Virus record (IMG/VR): IMGVR_UViG_3300025072_002799
Coordinates: 32,001-96,000 of that record
Origin: a virus
Strand: one strand, 5' to 3'
Length of the DNA: 64,000 nucleotides
This document shows, one piece after another, positions 26,564 to 45,620 of this stretch; position 1 is the stretch's first letter, and each line of letters starts with the position of its first letter. The position numbers and the translations under genes were made by a program. The notes under the pieces were generated by a model. That model searched no databases. It was given only the letters and a program-made list of their open reading frames with translations, and was not told where the DNA came from.

Positions 26564-28054
26564 ATGAGAACTTTCGGACAATATCTTGAAGAAAATGCAC
26601 CTGAAGAACCAGTTATGGCCACTGCTGTGGAGCCAGTTGACTTAGATGCAAGCTTGGATGCAATGGTAAACTCTTTAGTAGTAGACCTTAAAAAACGCAT
26701 TAAATCCGCAATTCCACAAAGGGAAAAGAAGAAAAACCTTTTTGACCGATTTGGGAAGTGGTGGAAAGATATGAACGACCCAAATTATGAGACGCCCTAC
26801 ACACCTGGACATCGCATGAATCAAAATCGTGCTGCTGGGCTTCATACTGGGCAAGCCAGCGATTTGGGAGAGTCCGTGATCCCTATTGAGGTTTATAATT
26901 TCTTTAAGGAGTCTGCCGAGAAGATTTGCGAAGCAGAAGCTCATGACATAGATTCGCCAAATTTGCATGGAGATCCAAGCAGATATGGAACTTATGAATT
27001 TAGCCCAAATCCAGAAGTTGCAGCAGCAGCTAGAGCGGGAAGACAGCCTCCACAATCATCTCAGCACTTAGGTCCTGGCATGACTCATGTTGGAGGGAAT
27101 TATTATCACAATCAAGAAACAGGGAAGACTCAACAGATCAATCCAGTGGCTCAGTTGGGAATTTATTTAGATGGTGAATTTAAGAAAAAATTGAAGGGAA
27201 TATTAAGCGCCCATATGAAAAACGCACAAAGCAACAAAGACATAGAAGCTGGAAACATACCTGCCGCACCAAAAGCGCCTCAGGCTGCTGGTCCAAATGA
27301 TCCACCGACAGCACCAACAGCACCAAAGTTTTCTGATGGACCCGCTTCTGAAAGACCTCCTGTTGGACCTGGACCTTCATTAACAGATGACAAAGCAACT
27401 TCCGCTTCTTCTGCAAAGCCAGTTTTAAGTCCAAATGACGATCACAAAAAACTAGTGGCTTCTGCCGACAGCAAAAAAACAGACGAAGAAAAGGCTGAAG
27501 TGTATTTGCCAAATTACAAACAAAATCACACTGCACAAGAAGTAATGGATGCTGTAGATAAACTTATGGATGGTGGAAAAGCTTTTGATGATACAATTGT
27601 AAGTGTGCAAGATTTTAGAGATGACTTAAAAACTGTGTTAGGTGTCAAAATAAAACCTAAATCAACCCCATCTGACTTCAATCAAGTTGATGAAGATGAA
27701 AGTAGCAGTAAGTTAATCAACATGCTTGGGAACAAAAGTGATGAACAACAGGCTGAATTGCTTTCTCCTGGTTATGAAGAAAAAGGTTATAAAGTTGATG
27801 ATATTTTGCAAGGCGCTAAGAGTCTTCAACAACATGACAAGAAGAAGAAAACTGTTAAGCAATTCCGTGATGGACTTGATCAATATCTTGGATTGACAAT
27901 TGGACACGCTGAATCCAATATGGTTGACAGATACAAGCAAATGTTGAGAGAGCAAGATCTAAAAGGCTACATGACACCAGTGGTAAGATGGAAAGTGGAC
28001 GATTTGCCCGTTTCTGAACGAGCAAATTATTACCGTCAACTAATGCGTAATTAA
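26564..28054 (+). CDS. Putative internal head protein (N-terminal capsid-targeting-like tag)
   Basis: Starts MRTFGQYLEE, has a Pro-rich disordered middle, and an ATATATA box upstream. Confidence 0.5.
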   Translation: MRTFGQYLEENAPEEPVMATAVEPVDLDASLDAMVNSLVVDLKKRIKSAIPQREKKKNLFDRFGKWWKDMNDPNYETPYTPGHRMNQNRAAGLHTGQASDLGESVIPIEVYNFFKESAEKICEAEAHDIDSPNLHGDPSRYGTYEFSPNPEVAAAARAGRQPPQSSQHLGPGMTHVGGNYYHNQETGKTQQINPVAQLGIYLDGEFKKKLKGILSAHMKNAQSNKDIEAGNIPAAPKAPQAAGPNDPPTAPTAPKFSDGPASERPPVGPGPSLTDDKATSASSAKPVLSPNDDHKKLVASADSKKTDEEKAEVYLPNYKQNHTAQEVMDAVDKLMDGGKAFDDTIVSVQDFRDDLKTVLGVKIKPKSTPSDFNQVDEDESSSKLINMLGNKSDEQQAELLSPGYEEKGYKVDDILQGAKSLQQHDKKKKTVKQFRDGLDQYLGLTIGHAESNMVDRYKQMLREQDLKGYMTPVVRWKVDDLPVSERANYYRQLMRN

Positions 28055-28977
28055 TTTCCGTGTTCTGCCGTAACCCATCTGATAGTTTTGCTTTCAGATC
28101 TCATGAACACTGAGTTAGTGGTCGGTTTCGCTCTATTCCACTTAACACCTCTCAACAGACTGCCATCGGTGATTCCCGTTCCAGCAAACGCACACTCTCC
28201 TTTAACTAATTCATTTTCATCCAAAATAGGCTCAGAAGACTCTCCTTCTTTAGTGCATTCTTGACCTTGTAGCCCTCCACCCAAGCATTTGATCGCACAA
28301 GCGGACAGAATAGCCTCTGGCGAGCCTCCAATGCCATAAAGGATGTCTATGTCACTATCTGGAAGGCAAGCCGCAACAGCCCCAGAAACGTCACAATCTT
28401 GAATTAATTTAATTCTGCACCCTAGTTCTCTTAATTCTTTGATTGCCTCATGATGTCGTGGTCGATCTAAAATGCATACCAACACCTGTTCTGGCTCCTT
28501 TCCTGTTGCCGAACAAACCAATTCTATGGTTCTTTCTAGTGGGTCGTTTAATTTTAATTCTACTTTACTTGCTATTTCAGGTCCGTATGCCAACTTTCTC
28601 ATATAATACGAAGACGGACTAAACATAGCTCCTTCTAGTGCGACAGAAATGACGCTCATAGCTTCTGGTCCAGAAGTTACAGTTGGAGTTGTTCCTTCAA
28701 TTGGATCTATTGCTATATCATTGAATTTTCCGTGGTATCCATCGCATGACCCCCACCTACTTCCGATTTTCTCTCCTGCGAACAAGCCATATGACTTATC
28801 CTTTTCTCCTTCGCCTATTACAATCTTTCCAGCAAAGTCCATTCCATTAAGACGATCTCTCATTGCATCAGTAGCGGCTTTATCTGATTCTAGTTTATTT
28901 CCGCTTCCGACCCACTTTGAGCCTGCTATTGCTCCTGCTTCTGTAACTCTAATTAAATCAAGGCTTATATGTTTCAT
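28051..28977 (-). CDS. glpX: Class II fructose-1,6-bisphosphatase
   Basis: 'RVTEA.AI', 'VIGEGEKD', 'DIAIDPIEGT', 'LDRPRH', 'GIGGSPE' and 'TGITDGSLLRGV'. Confidence 0.95.
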   Translation of the reverse strand: MKHISLDLIRVTEAGAIAGSKWVGSGNKLESDKAATDAMRDRLNGMDFAGKIVIGEGEKDKSYGLFAGEKIGSRWGSCDGYHGKFNDIAIDPIEGTTPTVTSGPEAMSVISVALEGAMFSPSSYYMRKLAYGPEIASKVELKLNDPLERTIELVCSATGKEPEQVLVCILDRPRHHEAIKELRELGCRIKLIQDCDVSGAVAACLPDSDIDILYGIGGSPEAILSACAIKCLGGGLQGQECTKEGESSEPILDENELVKGECAFAGTGITDGSLLRGVKWNRAKPTTNSVFMRSESKTIRWVTAEHGN

Positions 28978-31057: not shown

Positions 31058-32022
31058 AATCTTTCCTCTATTTGTTTGATATAATCTTCGTATAGCTCAA
31101 ATCCAGTATACAATCTTTTTAAGCCAATGCAAGCCAATGCTGTAGTTCCTGAACCCATAAATGGATCAAGAACCAAGTCTCCTTCGTCTGTGGTTAAAAG
31201 TATTAATTTCTCCACAATTTCAAGGGGATAAATTGCTGGATGCTTGGTTCCTTTAATGCTCTCAACGGGGCATTCTATTATATCTTTTAACATAGTCTTG
31301 CCAGATAATCTAATTACAGAAAAGCCGTTGTTTTTTATCTGGTTATTGCGACCGCCCTCCTGTCCACCAAACGCCAAAGCGTGAATGCCTCTGACTTTCA
31401 TCCTAAACCCACTGATTTTGCCACTTTTGACTTCATCTATGACAGCACCTAACTCATTAATAGCATTGCACTTCTCTTCTTCAGATAAATCAGAATTTTC
31501 TATAATTTTAAAATATTTACGCCCCACTTTAGTATCGGGATTTGGCTTATTTTCTTTAACCTTAGTCAACCTATCTCCGTAATACTTGTATTTGTTAGAT
31601 TTCACAAAATGAAAGAATGGTTCATGTGATGACACCATTCTTCGATTGAATTGACGTGGAACAGGGTTTGATTTAGACCAAGATATGTTGTTAATTAAAA
31701 TGGCGTCAGTTTCGTCTACCACTTTGGCTGCGAATCTATAAGGTGCCAATTGTAGCGAACTATTCAAATATTTATCGCCCATATTCCATATGATGCTTCC
31801 ATCTTCTTTTGTGACTCTAAGACACTCTCTGAACACTTCCAATAAAACATCAAGATATTCATCTAAATCACCCTCTTGACCTATCTCTTCTTTGTCTCCA
31901 TATTCTCTTTGTAAAAAATATGGTGGACTGGTAATTGTCAAATCAACTGTGTTGGTCGTTAAATTTTTAATTAGTTGACGGCAATCGCCTTGGATTATTT
32001 TATTTTTCACTATAGATTTCAC
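31039..32022 (-). CDS. DNA methyltransferase, beta class (SPPY, N4-C-like)
   Basis: 'ITSPPY' catalytic motif precedes 'HPA.YP...VLDPFMGSGTT'. Confidence 0.92.
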   Translation of the reverse strand: MKSIVKNKIIQGDCRQLIKNLTTNTVDLTITSPPYFLQREYGDKEEIGQEGDLDEYLDVLLEVFRECLRVTKEDGSIIWNMGDKYLNSSLQLAPYRFAAKVVDETDAILINNISWSKSNPVPRQFNRRMVSSHEPFFHFVKSNKYKYYGDRLTKVKENKPNPDTKVGRKYFKIIENSDLSEEEKCNAINELGAVIDEVKSGKISGFRMKVRGIHALAFGGQEGGRNNQIKNNGFSVIRLSGKTMLKDIIECPVESIKGTKHPAIYPLEIVEKLILLTTDEGDLVLDPFMGSGTTALACIGLKRLYTGFELYEDYIKQIEERLWQQKI

Positions 32023-35696: not shown

Positions 35697-36614
35697 ATGA
35701 AGAAATATAAAGAATGGACTCTAGGCGTTATTTCTATTTTAGGTCTTATTATTTTAAGCGTTGCATTTGCACCTGATGAAAACAAAATACTTTACAATCA
35801 CCCTCTTGACAACATGCCAGTTGTTGACGGTCCTGTCTACAAAACAAACACTGTTGCCCCACAGGAAGATAGAGGAGAAGAATATCGCACATGGCTTGCA
35901 GCCAGTGTAAGAGTTAAGGTTGGCAAATTTTATGGCTCTGGAACAATCTGTTATTACGATGCAGAAAAAAAGGAAGCGTGGGTCATTTCATGTGGTCACT
36001 TATGGAGTGGAACAAAAAATGCTGGCGCTTTAAATATGGGTACGGCAGAAATATCTGCTTGGTATCACAATGAAAAAAAGCTTGCTTTTCCAAAAAAGTA
36101 TAAAGCGAAAGTAATCTTTTACAGTAACACAAAAGGATATGATGTATCGTTGCTGAAATTCACTCCAGATTGGGAACCCGAATATTTTACAATTGCTCAA
36201 TCAGATTATAAAATTGAAGTCGGCAAAACATATCATTCTACAGGATGTGATTCAAGCAAAGAGGTCGCAAGATATGAAGTTGAAATTTTAACAGTTGGAT
36301 CTCGACCTGGAGTTGACACAAGAGCAAAAAAAAATAGCCCACGACCTGGAAGATCAGGAGGGGGGCTACTTACAAATGATGGATATTACATTGGCACATG
36401 TTGGGGAACAACGGATAAAGTAAATGGAAACGGACAAGGAATATTCACATCAATACCTTCGATTAGGAAACATTTCAAAAGTCAGGGATATGAATGGTTA
36501 TTGAATTTAACGCCACCTAATGGCGCTAGAACAATTCCTATAATAGACAGGAACAATCCTGGCGCAAGGTTTCCAATAGATTATATTCCATTTCCATTCA
36601 GGAATATGTTTTAG
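35697..36614 (+). CDS. Exported trypsin-like (S1) serine protease
   Basis: N-terminal hydrophobic segment and catalytic triad motifs 'SCGHL', 'DVSLL' and 'GRSGGGL'. Confidence 0.88.
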   Translation: MKKYKEWTLGVISILGLIILSVAFAPDENKILYNHPLDNMPVVDGPVYKTNTVAPQEDRGEEYRTWLAASVRVKVGKFYGSGTICYYDAEKKEAWVISCGHLWSGTKNAGALNMGTAEISAWYHNEKKLAFPKKYKAKVIFYSNTKGYDVSLLKFTPDWEPEYFTIAQSDYKIEVGKTYHSTGCDSSKEVARYEVEILTVGSRPGVDTRAKKNSPRPGRSGGGLLTNDGYYIGTCWGTTDKVNGNGQGIFTSIPSIRKHFKSQGYEWLLNLTPPNGARTIPIIDRNNPGARFPIDYIPFPFRNMF

Positions 36615-37323: not shown

Positions 37324-37530
37324 TTAGCAACCTCTGATTCTAGCATTGCAGCAAGACTTGATTGTTTTGCCACAACAAGATTTAATGCTAATAGAACATC
37401 CTCGTTTAACTGGGGATGAATCAGTTTCTTCTTTTTCGTCTGTCTTTCCGCAACAACCAGTGTTGTTTGCTGATTTGTATTCTCCCTCAGACATCCCTTT
37501 TCCAACGCCAGTAATTGATGTTGCACCCAT
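37324..37530 (-). CDS. Small Cys-rich protein
   Basis: MGATSITGVG...GCCG...SCCG...SCC...GC, coupled by TAATG to the metalloprotease gene. Confidence 0.55.
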   Translation of the reverse strand: MGATSITGVGKGMSEGEYKSANNTGCCGKTDEKEETDSSPVKRGCSISIKSCCGKTIKSCCNARIRGC

Positions 37531-38975
37531 TAGTGTCCTCCGCAATTGCAAACAATTAAATTTCTGTTTATTTTATTTTCTACAATCTCAAACATTGAAT
37601 CTTCGCCATTAACTAGATCATGCTGAGATATGAAGTTTAAGCAGTTTGATGCATCACTGACAATTTCTCTGTCTGAACTTTGCAAGTGATGAATTAATTG
37701 TCCATTCTCGTCAACATCATAATAAATGTCTCCAGCCACTTCTATTTCACAATCATATAAAGGATTATGAACCATGGCTGATATTCCCAACTTGTCGGAC
37801 AACCTAATTGTTGTGTTTCTCTGACATCTAACGATCTTTCCATGCTCGCCTTCAATAACATCTGTTCCTTGAGCAAGAAGGTATTCCATTTTTTGTCCAT
37901 CTATTTTTTTTGCCAACATCTTTATTTGTGGGCGTAAAATTTTTCTTTTTATAAACACACCCTGCAATATATTTTTGTGTTCCCCGCCTTCGATACGAGA
38001 AACTGAAACCATCGCATTTGCAATTGCATTATAAAATTTTGTAGTTCTTGGAGCAACTTTTAACCCCTCTACAACATACCCATATGCTGCACTTACGGCA
38101 ACTTTCATGGCTTCCTTTTGCGACATTCTTTTTGACTCAAATTCATAAATCCCTACCATAATGTCGTACCACGCCGCAACAAACAATCTTCCGAAGTTAT
38201 GGCATTCGCCACCAAGCTTGTCTTGTCCAGGGTTATGTGGCAACTTGTGTGGAGGTGCATAAGTGAAATTGTTGATTGCATTTCGCAACGCTCCTGGCTT
38301 GAAGCCCCTTCTGGAATATGCTATAGCATTTCCCATTTCTTCTGCGATTCTAGATATGACATTGTGTTTTCTCAAATCTCCTTTAGTTTCTTTAAGAGCA
38401 TGTTCTAGAACGCCATCATAAAGCATGACGGTTGCAATCGCATTAATATCTCCAAATGCTTCGTGGAATGCCCATATTTCACTTGCTTGCACGTTCCAAA
38501 AATCGGGGCGCATTGAATCCAATAAAGCGTGACCCAATTCATGTGCAACAACATCAACTGAATCTGCCGTAAACACATCTTTCCCATTGACTTTCTTATG
38601 AAAGAATTTCAAGTTTTTTCGATCATAAAATGCATTCAATTGCTTTCCTGCGGTTGGGTGAACTTTAAGCAGTTTGGTTGCTGCCCATTTTTTAGTTTTT
38701 TCTCTATAGCTAGAAAAATGATCAATAGAGTTTACCATTGTTGCGTAAACATTCGCCGCTCTACCATGCGAAGTTCCAGCCTCTAGGTGCTTCGGATTGA
38801 ATCCATTAACTTTGAAATTTAGTATATTTGGCTTCTTTGGAACTGGAATTTCAACCGTTAGTCCTGGGGTTGTTGGGTCATTTAATTGATAATTAATCAT
38901 ATCTTTGTTGACATGAGCCGCAACATCTGTCTTGTTTTCGCAACAAGAGAACATATTTTTAAAAATTTCTAGCAT
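37530..38975 (-). CDS. Thermolysin/fungalysin-like (M4/M36) zinc metalloprotease
   Basis: 'NAFY', 'DVVAHELGH', third ligand 'AFHEAFGD', and 'ECH'. Confidence 0.85.
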   Translation of the reverse strand: MLEIFKNMFSCCENKTDVAAHVNKDMINYQLNDPTTPGLTVEIPVPKKPNILNFKVNGFNPKHLEAGTSHGRAANVYATMVNSIDHFSSYREKTKKWAATKLLKVHPTAGKQLNAFYDRKNLKFFHKKVNGKDVFTADSVDVVAHELGHALLDSMRPDFWNVQASEIWAFHEAFGDINAIATVMLYDGVLEHALKETKGDLRKHNVISRIAEEMGNAIAYSRRGFKPGALRNAINNFTYAPPHKLPHNPGQDKLGGECHNFGRLFVAAWYDIMVGIYEFESKRMSQKEAMKVAVSAAYGYVVEGLKVAPRTTKFYNAIANAMVSVSRIEGGEHKNILQGVFIKRKILRPQIKMLAKKIDGQKMEYLLAQGTDVIEGEHGKIVRCQRNTTIRLSDKLGISAMVHNPLYDCEIEVAGDIYYDVDENGQLIHHLQSSDREIVSDASNCLNFISQHDLVNGEDSMFEIVENKINRNLIVCNCGGH

Positions 38976-39020: not shown

Positions 39021-39542
39021 GTGTTTGAGTGGCTTAGAGTCAGAAGAAAAAAACAAATCAATTCAATAGGTCGTGCTAAGAATGAGTTTGAGAGAGAGAT
39101 AGAAAATCTAATAGGCAAAAAAGAATACGATGAATTCAAAAAATTTGCCTTCAAAAAAAGCATGACAGAGATGGCAATTGCCTTCATGTTAGGCGCTGCT
39201 TTTAAGAAGCTGATAACTTCTCTCTCCGACAACTTGGTAATGCCCCTTGTGAATTTTATAATCGCCGCAACTGGAGAAGATTGGAGATTATGGGAGTTTG
39301 CTCCAATAGAAGGTCTGACATTTGAGACAGGGCAGTTTTTAGGATCTTTTGTTGATTTCATTCTTTTATCAATAATTCTATATTTACTTTATAGAAAATT
39401 TATCGCCCCAATATTGGCAGAGGAAGAGAAAAACGAAATAACTGTAGTGGACACAATTGAATGTCCCAACTGTTACGAGAGAGTTTTCTACAAATCAAAA
39501 GTATGCAAATTTTGCACTAGAGAAATCAAGTTGTTTGATTAG
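39021..39542 (+). CDS. mscL: Large-conductance mechanosensitive channel with C-terminal Zn ribbon
   Basis: 'EFKKFAFK....MAIAFMLGAAF.KL..SL..NLVMP', 'GQFLG..VDF' and 'CP.C...C.FC'. Confidence 0.85.
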   Translation: MFEWLRVRRKKQINSIGRAKNEFEREIENLIGKKEYDEFKKFAFKKSMTEMAIAFMLGAAFKKLITSLSDNLVMPLVNFIIAATGEDWRLWEFAPIEGLTFETGQFLGSFVDFILLSIILYLLYRKFIAPILAEEEKNEITVVDTIECPNCYERVFYKSKVCKFCTREIKLFD

Positions 39543-41786: not shown

Positions 41787-42449
41787 TTAGTCTTTTTTAG
41801 GCAATTTAGGAGGAGGCAGTTCATAAAACTGTATATCGCCAGGGATTTTATAGTTATAACTCCCACTTCCTTGCCCTTGCCCATCGCCTTTTCCGTCGCC
41901 TTTGCCCTCTCCATCGCCATCTCCATCGCCATCTCCTTCTCCTTCCATGCCACCATCTTTGCCACGCTTGCCATAAAATTTCTTGCCCTTAGCAATTCCT
42001 TTCTTCAACTTATTTATTTGCTCTCTAGCCTCTTTGGAATAAGGGAGTTTATGCAATCTTGGCTCATTTCTTGATTTGGGAGAAAAATTAATTAGATATT
42101 TTTCTAGAAAAGAGTCTTCTTCATAAGACTCGTCTGGAGTTTCATCGTCTTTGTCTTTTTCAATCTTTATTTCCTTGACCCAAACATAAACCGCTCCTGG
42201 CGTTCCATTTCTCTTATTTGGCTCTTTAACTTCTGCCCAATAAATTCTAAATGTTTGGGGAAGAGGACTATCTGAAGGCCACCCAAACAAATTGCCAACC
42301 GAGTTAAATACGGCGAAACTAAAATATAGAGAAAGAACAATGAATGCACACTTCAACCACCACCATCCCCTTGCGCCAATGATTAGCCATAAAGCCATTA
42401 CCACCAAAACTACAAAAGAAAGCGGTATTCCAACTGTATCAAAATTCAT
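41787..42449 (-). CDS. Two-TM membrane protein with Gly-rich spacer; third gene of the MotA/ExbB-like operon
   Basis: Two N-terminal TM segments, 'GWPS', 'EPR..KLPY', (GD/GE)n repeats and a Pro-rich C-terminus. Confidence 0.65.
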   Translation of the reverse strand: MNFDTVGIPLSFVVLVVMALWLIIGARGWWWLKCAFIVLSLYFSFAVFNSVGNLFGWPSDSPLPQTFRIYWAEVKEPNKRNGTPGAVYVWVKEIKIEKDKDDETPDESYEEDSFLEKYLINFSPKSRNEPRLHKLPYSKEAREQINKLKKGIAKGKKFYGKRGKDGGMEGEGDGDGDGDGEGKGDGKGDGQGQGSGSYNYKIPGDIQFYELPPPKLPKKD

Positions 42450-42453
42450 CTTA

Positions 42454-43149
42454 CTATCCTTCTAAATTGTTGTATTCTTCATATTCTTCACTTTCTTCAC
42501 TTTCTTCACCCTCTTCAATTGATGGCGGCTCTATACCTCCGTCGAAGTCTTCGCCATTGTTCTGAGATCGTTGTATTATATTTTTGGGATCTTCATTCAC
42601 ATCAGTTATATTCCCATCTTTATCTACACTAAAACGAAACGCAGTTCTTGAATCACCATTTTTGGCTAAAGTAACAGTCCTAGATGCAATCAAAGACAGG
42701 CTTGGATTTATTTTCTCCGCGATTATTGTGACCTCCACCGGCCTCTTGTCACGCTTGGTGTAGGCATGAACGTTGACGACATACTCTCCAGGGACGACTC
42801 CACGTAATGTTATTATTTCCCTGTTCTCTTTATATTCAACTACGGTTCCATGAGGAGTATAGACCCTATCATTCCTGTTTCCTAAATCATCTCTATCCAA
42901 GTGCATTAGACCAGCTTCTCTACTATTGAAGTAAACAATTTCGCCATTTGGATCTTCCATGTAAATATCAATGTCATCATTGAATTCAACTGGCCATGTC
43001 ATGCTGATTATGAAATCGGCAAATACATTGACTTTTTTATCATCCTCAGATGGATTGATGAGCAAAAAGGAAATTAAAAATAACGCCCCAAACACCAATA
43101 TAGTTCCAAACAAAAGATCAATTAGGGGCGTATTATTTTGATTATTCAT
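42454..43149 (-). CDS. ExbD/TolR/MotB-like single-TM protein with YfaP-like periplasmic domain
   Basis: 'TPLIDLLF' TM segment with the conserved Asp, then 'W....DDIDIY..DP...LDRDD.G...E.I......GEY.VNVH.Y'. Confidence 0.65.
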   Translation of the reverse strand: MNNQNNTPLIDLLFGTILVFGALFLISFLLINPSEDDKKVNVFADFIISMTWPVEFNDDIDIYMEDPNGEIVYFNSREAGLMHLDRDDLGNRNDRVYTPHGTVVEYKENREIITLRGVVPGEYVVNVHAYTKRDKRPVEVTIIAEKINPSLSLIASRTVTLAKNGDSRTAFRFSVDKDGNITDVNEDPKNIIQRSQNNGEDFDGGIEPPSIEEGEESEESEEYEEYNNLEG

Positions 43150-43152
43150 GAA

Positions 43153-43665
43153 TTAAATATCTTTGTTTAATGACTTGTGTGTTTTGATAGATTGTCCCAA
43201 GATGAAATATTGTAGTTGCAACAACATTCCACAAATTAGACCACTTGCAGTCGTATAAAATGCGGTAGAAGCACCAAGCCCAATTGTTTGCAACAAATTG
43301 ATTTTGGCTTCTGCCGTAGTCAAATCCATTTCATCAAAAGATGAGAACATGATGGTAAGTCCAATGATGGTTCCTAACATTCCCAACTGGAAAAAGGCAC
43401 CACACACAAAATTGCCCACCTCCTCCAGCCTCTCAAATTTAACTACCATCTCATCTTCAATATAAATGTCTTGTCTTCCCCACACCCAAACTTTCCATCC
43501 ACACCAAGTTGTCATAAGACCAAATATTGCTGCAATTGCAAAGCTTATTTTAGTGGCATCTTTTTCCCAAACAATTTCTGCCAATCCAGACTGCCAAAAA
43601 GCAATTGCACCAATCGAAATAAGTACAACTAACAACCACCATTTTAAAAATAAAGCGTATTTCAT
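43153..43665 (-). CDS. MotA/TolQ/ExbB ion-channel family protein
   Basis: Four hydrophobic segments, 'LGMLGTIIG' and 'STAFYTT.SGL'. The ATG at 43665 follows GGAG. Confidence 0.85.
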   Translation of the reverse strand: MKYALFLKWWLLVVLISIGAIAFWQSGLAEIVWEKDATKISFAIAAIFGLMTTWCGWKVWVWGRQDIYIEDEMVVKFERLEEVGNFVCGAFFQLGMLGTIIGLTIMFSSFDEMDLTTAEAKINLLQTIGLGASTAFYTTASGLICGMLLQLQYFILGQSIKTHKSLNKDI

Positions 43666-43676
43666 AAGTTTTCTCC

Positions 43677-43710
43677 AAAAAAAAAGCCTGCCCAATAGTG
43701 GGCAGGCTTT
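43677..43710 (-). terminator. Rho-independent terminator
   Basis: AAAGCCTGCCCA-CTAT-TGGGCAGGC followed by a T-run on the minus strand. Confidence 0.85.
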
Positions 43711-44447: not shown

Positions 44448-45620
44448 TTAATTATGGTTGTGTTCCTCGCCACCAAAAGGAGATTCTGGGTGGCCGTGAT
44501 CATGCGTGTATTCCATTTCTTCGAATGAAGCATGGTCAAATACAGGAGTTTTTTCTGATTGACATATTTGCCAAATCAAATCAAAGCAATATTTAGAAAC
44601 TTGCTCTACTCCCTGATAATCTATCTTATCAGCAGTATCATCTGGCGTGTGGTAATATCGGTGAAGCCCCGTATGCAAAAAAGCCACTGGGACTCTTTTA
44701 TTATAGAAGGAGGCATGGTCCGATCCTCCACCCTTTCTGCTGGTGATCTGTTTTGCAAAAGCGTACTTGCTGTTGAGTCCATCAATTATACGACTTATAT
44801 CAACAGAACTATCTCCTCCATGAAACCCTGCAAAGTAAGCTCCCTTACCAAGATAACCAACCATGTCTAGATTAACCATCGCAACATGCTTTGTCATACT
44901 AGGTGAGTTTATCGGAAATTTAGGATTGTTGCAATAAAATCTAGAACCATGTAATCCCATTTCTTCGGCTGAGTACCACTGAAACACAATGGTTCTTTTG
45001 TTTTTGCCTTTAAGGATTGAAACCGCTTTTGCCATTGCAAGCAAAGCCGTAGATCCTGATGCATTATCGTCCGCACCATGATGAACTTCTGTGGTTCTTC
45101 CGCGAGACATGGACGGACCATATCCTACGTGATCTAGATGAGCGCCAACAACAACGATTTCGTCTTTTAATTCTGGGTCGTTTCCTTCAACCCACGCATA
45201 TACGTTATTGCACCAATCGTCGCCCACTTCTCTGTTCGGTCCAGGGTTTATTCCGCTAATCCTACGTCCAATATCTTTGGATGTGAATTTGTGGAACATA
45301 ACATTCAGTCCCCATTCTTCGCACTTTTTCTTTACGAAGTCTTCTGCTTTCCTATGACCCCTCTTTCCAGTCATTCGACCTTCAAGATCATCTGATGCTA
45401 AGTAATAAAGATTTTTCTTTATTTCATCTTCTTTGATAGAATCTAAAGCATCGGAAAAGGTCTTTGGCTTAGGAACTTCAACCTCAACTTCAGGAGTAAC
45501 CTCTGGAGTGACTTGAGGAGGATCAACAACATCAACCCTATTCATTAAAGCCATGCCAACAATGCCGATTGCTAGTAAAACAACTACCAATAACAACTGA
45601 TTTTTATTTACGCCCATCAT
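44448..45620 (-). CDS. Membrane-anchored M28 metallopeptidase
   Basis: 'LEGR.TG', 'GAHLDH', 'GADDNASG', 'AEEMGL', 'NLDMVG', 'SDH' and 'YH...D', with an N-terminal TM segment. Confidence 0.93.
   Translation of the reverse strand: MMGVNKNQLLLVVVLLAIGIVGMALMNRVDVVDPPQVTPEVTPEVEVEVPKPKTFSDALDSIKEDEIKKNLYYLASDDLEGRMTGKRGHRKAEDFVKKKCEEWGLNVMFHKFTSKDIGRRISGINPGPNREVGDDWCNNVYAWVEGNDPELKDEIVVVGAHLDHVGYGPSMSRGRTTEVHHGADDNASGSTALLAMAKAVSILKGKNKRTIVFQWYSAEEMGLHGSRFYCNNPKFPINSPSMTKHVAMVNLDMVGYLGKGAYFAGFHGGDSSVDISRIIDGLNSKYAFAKQITSRKGGGSDHASFYNKRVPVAFLHTGLHRYYHTPDDTADKIDYQGVEQVSKYCFDLIWQICQSEKTPVFDHASFEEMEYTHDHGHPESPFGGEEHNHN

Follow-up and report, generated by a model that had tools for sequence, protein, structure and literature searches.

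A 64,000-nucleotide stretch of viral DNA (positions 32,001 to 96,000 of the 111-kb IMG/VR virus record IMGVR_UViG_3300025072_002799; this whole stretch is hereafter called the window) carries three adjacent genes, termed here A, B and C, that we read with moderate confidence as a divergent minimal ion-driven envelope motor of the MotA/ExbB class, the phage copy being a host-derived auxiliary module. The three tightly spaced open reading frames (ORFs) described in an earlier note on this DNA are confirmed at their places (Table 1), the gaps in the raw sequence being 3 nucleotides (nt) between A and B (TAA ttc ATG) and 4 nt between B and C (TAG taag ATG). One search with protein B returned 986 relatives at E<=1e-3, and another returned 2115 cluster representatives at 50% identity; thus, the genes are real and not chance ORFs.

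Protein A matches the Pfam family MotA_ExbB (PF01618) with 30.9 bits at a cut-off of 22.9, and its last two transmembrane (TM) helices align to E. coli TolQ (hhalign E 2.3e-6, 89% probability) and ExbB (E 4.6e-5). In the hhalign alignments, T99 and T139 of A fall on the columns of the channel threonines, T148 and T181 in ExbB and T145 and T178 in TolQ. Comparison of 14 phage and bacterial sequences revealed that T139 is invariant and T99 nearly so (at least 90%), the other invariant residues being W9, D36, G95, G98, G102, A135, T138, G142, L143 and Q152. The proposal of a four-TM MotA/TolQ/ExbB protein therefore holds for the family and for the number of segments, of which, by Kyte-Doolittle analysis, all four are hydrophobic or amphipathic and just two strongly hydrophobic. 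Since only about 25 residues separate segments 2 and 3, the cytoplasmic part of A, as judged from its sequence, is minimal. The similarity of A to ZorA is weak only, with a best PADLOC E-value of 5.8e-6 and an NCBIfam match at E 0.003 (16 bits, far below cut-offs of 100-500).

Protein B combines a membrane helix of motor type with an outer domain of another kind. In its AlphaFold model, which has a predicted local distance difference test (pLDDT) score of 75, a TM helix (residues 7-31) is followed by an all-beta sandwich (residues 44-185). The helix contains the sequence TPLIDLLF, and its aspartate, already singled out as ExbD/TolR-like before any homologs were compared, is D11; all 23 phage sequences compared have it, and the bacterial relatives examined also retain it, in the corresponding stretches FTDLLF, FYDMLF and FLDLLF. 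By hhalign, D11 is in register with D25 of ExbD (E 0.059) and D23 of TolR (E 0.016) over 16-18 TM residues. No Pfam, NCBIfam or PADLOC family matched B, PF02472 gave no match at E<=1, and neither B nor the 111-kb record as a whole contains an ExbD or OmpA domain, in agreement with what the earlier note had read from the translation.

The closest solved structures to the outer domain of B are those of Ca-binding TerD proteins, namely 2qz7_B (Z 8.6, root mean square deviation 3.8 over 124 residues) and 2kxt (Z 8.0); the Foldseek E-values of the outer-domain neighbors range from 1e-3 to 8e-3, and the TerD Pfam family does not match B. A beta-sandwich of the YfaP type had been suggested for this domain: the sandwich itself is borne out by the model, and the link to YfaP/DUF2135 proved weak. 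E. coli YfaP was matched at E 0.003 by BLASTP and at E 0.0029 with 10.7% probability by hhalign, and Pfam DUF2135 (PF09906) detected two bacterial B relatives below threshold (E 0.0085 and 0.31) and gave no match to B of the window. The outer domain and YfaP have in common the pattern W..DxDL.V..P.G......D...G..E......G.Y.V, and the Atlas score for this likeness was 0.84. The most conserved residues of the outer domain are acidic (D59, D61 and L84-D85-R86-D87-D88-x-G90), belong to the invariant motifs DxDxY..DP and LDRDDxG, and are predicted to bind metal. A search of the B profile against PDB sequences gave a single weak match, 11pb_C, a 'virion structural protein' (E 0.3, motif DDVDIYVKGPNG). 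The sandwich (residues 42-190) also matches an internal region of phrog_1735, a phage family of unknown function (E 6.5e-7); these two matches suggest that the domain may also occur in phage particle proteins.

Protein C has the features expected of it from the translation, two TM helices, a Gly-rich spacer and a Pro-rich end, all of which are seen in its sequence and AlphaFold model (pLDDT 75). The model comprises TM helices 3-25 and 30-54, a small alpha/beta domain (residues 66-162) that includes a phage-specific insert of low model quality, a disordered Gly-rich linker (residues 167-197), and a final strand (residues 200-210) packing back on the domain. The C-terminal end, '...FYELPPPKLPKKD', shows the conserved pattern ...LPPxxLPxK / F.xLPxPxLPxK. 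In 31 phage and bacterial sequences, G56, P64, P77, G155 and K219 are invariant, and W57 and P58 (the GWP motif together with G56), E76 (EP), R131 (PRxY), Y137 and the prolines of LPxPxLPxK are kept in at least 90%. No Pfam or other family matched C, and fold searches with its soluble part gave no clear match (the VIA rows cover the helical hairpin only, and all Foldseek E-values are >1). Prediction of a 1:1:1 complex of A, B and C gave, with C as the partner, a score of 0.00 and a mark of 0.32, which speaks neither for nor against binding. C very likely belongs to the system, since its gene is strictly co-inherited with A and B.

The synteny search across phage and bacterial genomes suggested by the earlier note revealed the A-B-C order in 85 of 93 loci, every locus fetched being counted and several of the exceptions being cut contigs; among the full IMG/VR phage loci found with B, the order is kept in all 10. 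Besides one protease present in two loci, the trio is the only set of genes common to the window and these phage loci. Protein B is also encoded in 23 records of cultured Rhizobium phages, and in the two records examined the three genes lie side by side, each annotated as hypothetical. RHph_N3_19, RHph_Y68 and P10VF are among the cultured carriers. At the level of direct searches, the trio had no blastn match in cultured phages, C had no tblastn match in phages, and tblastn with A detected one Rhizobium phage, weakly.

The surroundings of the trio are rich in envelope-directed genes, including those for M28, M4-like and trypsin-like peptidases and for MscL, and unplugged channels of the MotAB type leak protons. 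These two facts would suit a lysis-timing or depolarizing device, in which A and B act as a holin-like controlled proton leak that collapses the membrane potential, or disrupt the envelope together with the proteases. We regard such a role as very unlikely: conservation of the neighboring envelope genes does not extend to other phage loci, the trio of the Rhizobium phages lies among genes of DNA metabolism, and free-living bacteria have homologous trios as a stable part of their chromosomes.

The bacterial distribution was assessed with one genome per species. A relative of B was found in at least 583 species of Alpha-, Beta- and Gammaproteobacteria, with isolate carriers that include Devosia sp. 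Root635, Sphaerotilus mobilis, Azohydromonas, Ideonella and Ca. Thiodiazotropha; in an even sample of Pseudomonadota, 12 of 401 genomes (~3%) have one. Neighborhoods were counted in 80 bacterial loci, most of which have the A-B-C order. The genes around the bacterial trio are chromosomal housekeeping genes, namely Suf genes, ABC (ATP-binding cassette) transporters, and genes for hydrogenase maturation and thiol-disulfide proteins, and one of the carrier genomes is a streamlined one of 1.1 Mb. Besides the trio, carrier genomes retain 2 to 8 canonical pairs of MotA_ExbB and ExbD (ordinary ExbBD/TolQR), and A of the trio is either the weakest PF01618 match of each carrier genome or lies under the listing threshold, compared with 85-140 bits for the canonical copies. 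Thus, the trio is an additional divergent paralogue or subfamily and not a replacement of Ton or Tol. Together with the lack of any family for B and C, this supports the view that the genes represent a distinct, previously unclassified subfamily of the MotA/ExbB type.

The presence of the same trio in bacterial chromosomes, in ~3% of the sampled Proteobacteria, identifies it as a cellular system borrowed by phages and not as a phage invention. In a quick maximum-likelihood search with IQ-TREE, B of the window and B of the IMG/VR phages form one clade (support 96 in the Shimodaira-Hasegawa-like approximate likelihood ratio test), which is sister (98) to copies from metagenome-assembled genomes (MAGs) of marine Alphaproteobacteria; the copies of the Rhizobium phages stand apart, on long branches. 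This pattern fits an old acquisition followed by retention, not a recent accident. The phage clade also includes locus L023, a 6.6-kb contig of a 'Rokuibacteriota' MAG, which is probably a phage contig mis-binned with a bacterial genome. Protein C of L023 has a Gly-rich linker of the phage type.

Chromosomes of many Alpha-, Beta- and Gammaproteobacteria carry the trio among housekeeping genes. This favors a borrowed host function over a device made specifically to exclude superinfecting phages or to interfere with host Ton, Tol or Zorya systems; the earlier suggestion of such a phage tool is not supported in its original form. A broader version of this idea is a conflict system, serving superinfection exclusion, defense or counter-defense, that senses, as Zorya does, when an incoming phage perturbs the envelope, or that disturbs Ton/Tol uptake of the host. 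The patchy occurrence in bacteria (12/401 genomes), the carriage of the trio by unrelated phage groups and the weak ZorA matches of A would fit such a system, and TerD-family proteins occur in operons linked with phage inhibition. ZorB, ZorC and ZorD are missing, however, the long tail of ZorA is lacking in A, PADLOC has no model that matches B or C, and no effector domain was found in A, B, C or the accessory protein D described below. Since, in addition, the bacterial copies reside among housekeeping genes and in the 1.1-Mb streamlined genome, not in defense islands, we consider a conflict role rather unlikely.

Many bacterial loci extend the three-gene operon by a fourth gene. Gene D lies after C in 37-38 of the 80 bacterial loci, from many Beta- and Gammaproteobacteria and some Alphaproteobacteria, and encodes a lipoprotein-like protein of ~233-259 amino acids (aa) with a weak DUF3108-like match (25 bits vs a cut-off of 27). 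At E<=0.01, gene D was detected neither in the window nor in any phage locus. Both the lineage of large marine phages to which the window belongs and the Rhizobium phages have A-B-C without gene D, and it is absent from the marine alphaproteobacterial clade nearest to the phages.

In ~17-22 of the 80 loci, the trio adjoins an ABC transporter associated with alcohol dehydrogenases dependent on pyrroloquinoline quinone (PQQ). The adjoining genes of the PQQ system encode the ABC transporter, a binding protein and a beta-propeller protein (TIGR03861, 03863, 03864, 03866), and the adjacency occurs in three separate lineages: marine Alphaproteobacteria, Sphaerotilaceae and one Magnetospiraceae MAG. 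A transporter of this Ped/Lut type has been linked to lanthanide uptake (PMC7391723), and its adjacency to the trio may reflect a functional link. The same adjacency could also be accounted for by a static membrane complex that is not a motor, for example a Ca2+/lanthanide sensor or a periplasmic metal-handling scaffold, in which the sandwich of B does the work and A is its anchor. The concentration of the most conserved B residues in acidic clusters of the outer domain and the Ca-binding TerD proteins as its closest fold point in this direction. We nevertheless judge a static complex to be quite unlikely. The ion-conduction residues (the TM aspartate of B, and the threonines and glycines of A) are invariant or nearly so in the phages and in all three sampled classes of Proteobacteria, which is hard to reconcile with a passive-anchor role for A, and the M. 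extorquens lut cluster includes no MotA-like gene.

Comparison of the trio with known ion-driven systems revealed a likeness to ExbB-ExbD-TonB and TolQ-TolR-TolA: (i) three inner-membrane genes are adjacent, (ii) A resembles TolQ and ExbB in its two final TM helices and has the channel threonines in common with them, (iii) B, like ExbD and TolR, has a short cytoplasmic N-terminus and the TM aspartate at the position of D25/D23, and (iv) C, like TonB and TolA, consists of a membrane anchor and a flexible linker. The lipoprotein-like product of gene D in many bacterial loci recalls Pal. The differences concern each of the three proteins. A is a 170-aa protein with almost no cytoplasmic domain and a PF01618 score of 31 bits, whereas canonical family members of those carrier genomes score 85-140; B has a beta-sandwich instead of the alpha/beta periplasmic domain of ExbD and TolR and does not match PF02472; and C has two TM helices instead of one, no TM histidine, and no TonB_C (PF03544) or TolA domain. 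The TM helix of TonB and TolA carries an SHLS-type motif. The TonB_C domain is absent from the entire 111-kb record, and PADLOC, apart from the weak ZorA match of A, returned no model for B or C, in line with the earlier note, which lists no TonB, TolA or ZorCDE gene.

MotAB/PomAB and ZorAB have the MotA_ExbB core in common with A, the four-segment topology of which resembles MotA. However, B lacks the peptidoglycan-binding domain of OmpA type found in MotB and ZorB, A has neither the FliG-interacting cytoplasmic domain of MotA nor the long tail of ZorA, and no ZorC, ZorD or flagellar genes accompany the trio. In the GldLM/PorLM motors, a single-pass axle with beta-rich periplasmic domains delivers work outward (PMC9389320), and the trio may be alike in this respect, although GldM is a far longer, multidomain protein, and these motors are found in Bacteroidota, whereas the trio is found in Proteobacteria and phages. 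No GldL or GldM family match appeared in general Pfam scans, no comparison aimed at GldLM/PorLM having been made. TerD proteins are cytoplasmic and soluble, whereas the sandwich of B is tethered to a TM helix of motor type. Full-text literature searches found no paper describing the trio, its sandwich partner or its carriage by phages. Uncharacterized 'generic ion transporters' and new von Willebrand factor A (vWA) transducers are mentioned in review and survey articles on 5:2 motors and force transducers (PMC9389320, PMC12505986, PMC12204202), and one paper includes a phage 'ExbB' in its list of putative auxiliary genes but does not analyze it (PMC11361711).

By analogy with the solved complexes of ExbBD, TolQR and MotAB, copies of A would form a channel ring that encircles the TM helices of a B dimer. 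The passage of protons (or Na+) via D11 of B and the conserved threonines T99 and T139 of A would drive a movement of B relative to A. The work would most likely be delivered outward, to the periplasm, through the acidic, probably Ca-binding sandwich of B and through C, since A has no cytoplasmic domain to act on. In an infected cell, the phage module may thereby keep up or boost a periplasmic or outer-membrane process coupled to the proton-motive force. Such an auxiliary role is favored because the phage copies derive from a host system that is found in housekeeping contexts and has no effector.

Several points weigh against a motor that serves the phage as an auxiliary module. MotA/ExbB proteins have conserved TM prolines, and on reading the sequence of A these are missing. 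The alignment of B to ExbD and TolR covers just the 16-18 TM residues, at non-significant E-values, and C, whose proposed topology is based on the positive-inside rule, shows none of the hallmarks of TonB and TolA. A 5:2 stoichiometry is taken over from related motors as an assumption. The B tree comes from a quick search and has long phage branches, the auxiliary role is read from genomic context, and the sporadic distribution (~3%) and phage carriage also fit a conflict system. Finally, no RNA run was listed among the public runs that hold the stretch.

More tentatively, we propose as a possible but not probable extension that the trio, with lipoprotein D in many bacteria, constitutes an unrecognized class of periplasm-directed 5:2 motors beside Ton, Tol and Gld/Por. 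Such a motor would have a Ca- or lanthanide-binding sandwich as its axle and C as its transducer, and would be tied to the supply of metal or cofactor for periplasmic PQQ dehydrogenases; phages would use it to keep an outer-envelope process powered during infection. To our knowledge, there are only a few kinds of ion-driven 5:2 motor (flagellar, Ton, Tol, gliding/type 9 secretion, and Zorya), and we know of no new partner architecture that has not revealed a new envelope process. The present family is large (the 2115 clusters mentioned above) and has two unnamed partner proteins; it is retained by streamlined marine bacteria and has been kept by at least two phage groups over long divergence. 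Its function is directly testable, since cultured Rhizobium phages and isolates of Devosia, Sphaerotilus, Ideonella and Azohydromonas carry the trio, and such a test would reveal the benefit that a phage draws from an envelope motor of its own.

Table 1. Features of the trio locus in the window and examples from bacterial loci
Feature	Position	Strand	Size	Description
Gene A	43153-43665	-	170 aa	MotA/TolQ/ExbB-family channel subunit, minimal (Pfam, hhalign, conservation)
Gene B	42454-43149	-	231 aa	TM helix with Asp11, beta-sandwich outer domain and acidic disordered tail
Gene C	41787-42449	-	220 aa	TM hairpin, GWP motif, small alpha/beta domain, Gly-rich linker, conserved C-terminal motif
Ribosome-binding site GGAG	43673-43676	-		8 nt 5' of the gene A ATG (raw sequence)
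Terminator-like hairpin	43683-43710	-		12-bp stem with 7 G-C pairs, then T run; directly upstream of gene A
Downstream gene	41750-40842	-	302 aa	No family match; 36 nt past gene C, own ribosome-binding site
MscL homologue	39021-39542	+		Pfam MscL E 2.8e-18; distance to the trio 2 kb
Trypsin-like, M4-like and M28 peptidase genes	35697-36614, 37530-38975, 44448-45620			Flank the trio
Gene D, bacterial examples	L072:7117-7896, L071:7079-7780			
Trio beside PQQ-system transporter, bacterial examples	L016:1555-5336, L072:2307-5255			

The genes for the large terminase, portal and major head protein are located 2-17 kb from the trio and identify the window as phage DNA. The source record is labelled a provirus, with a CheckV completeness of 22%, and at least 88% of the sampled words of the stretch are present in five marine metagenome runs. 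The start of gene A was assigned to the ATG at 43665 rather than to an upstream TTG on account of the GGAG sequence that precedes this ATG by 8 nt. From the base sequence, the strong hairpin ends the gene preceding A and lies so close to the ribosome-binding site of A that a separate promoter would not fit in between. As only a few bases lie between the two, the trio would be either read through the hairpin or transcribed from a promoter overlapping the upstream gene.

Protein B is also encoded on a 389-kb contig, compared with the 111-kb record of the window. Among the flanking peptidase genes, only the trypsin-like one recurs near the trio elsewhere, in the phage loci L010 and L011, with 48% identity. 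In a related 81-kb phage contig, the trio adjoins a gene for a fructose-1,6-bisphosphatase of the GlpX type (L010:6317-7252), and the window contains an ORF of similar size (28051-28977).

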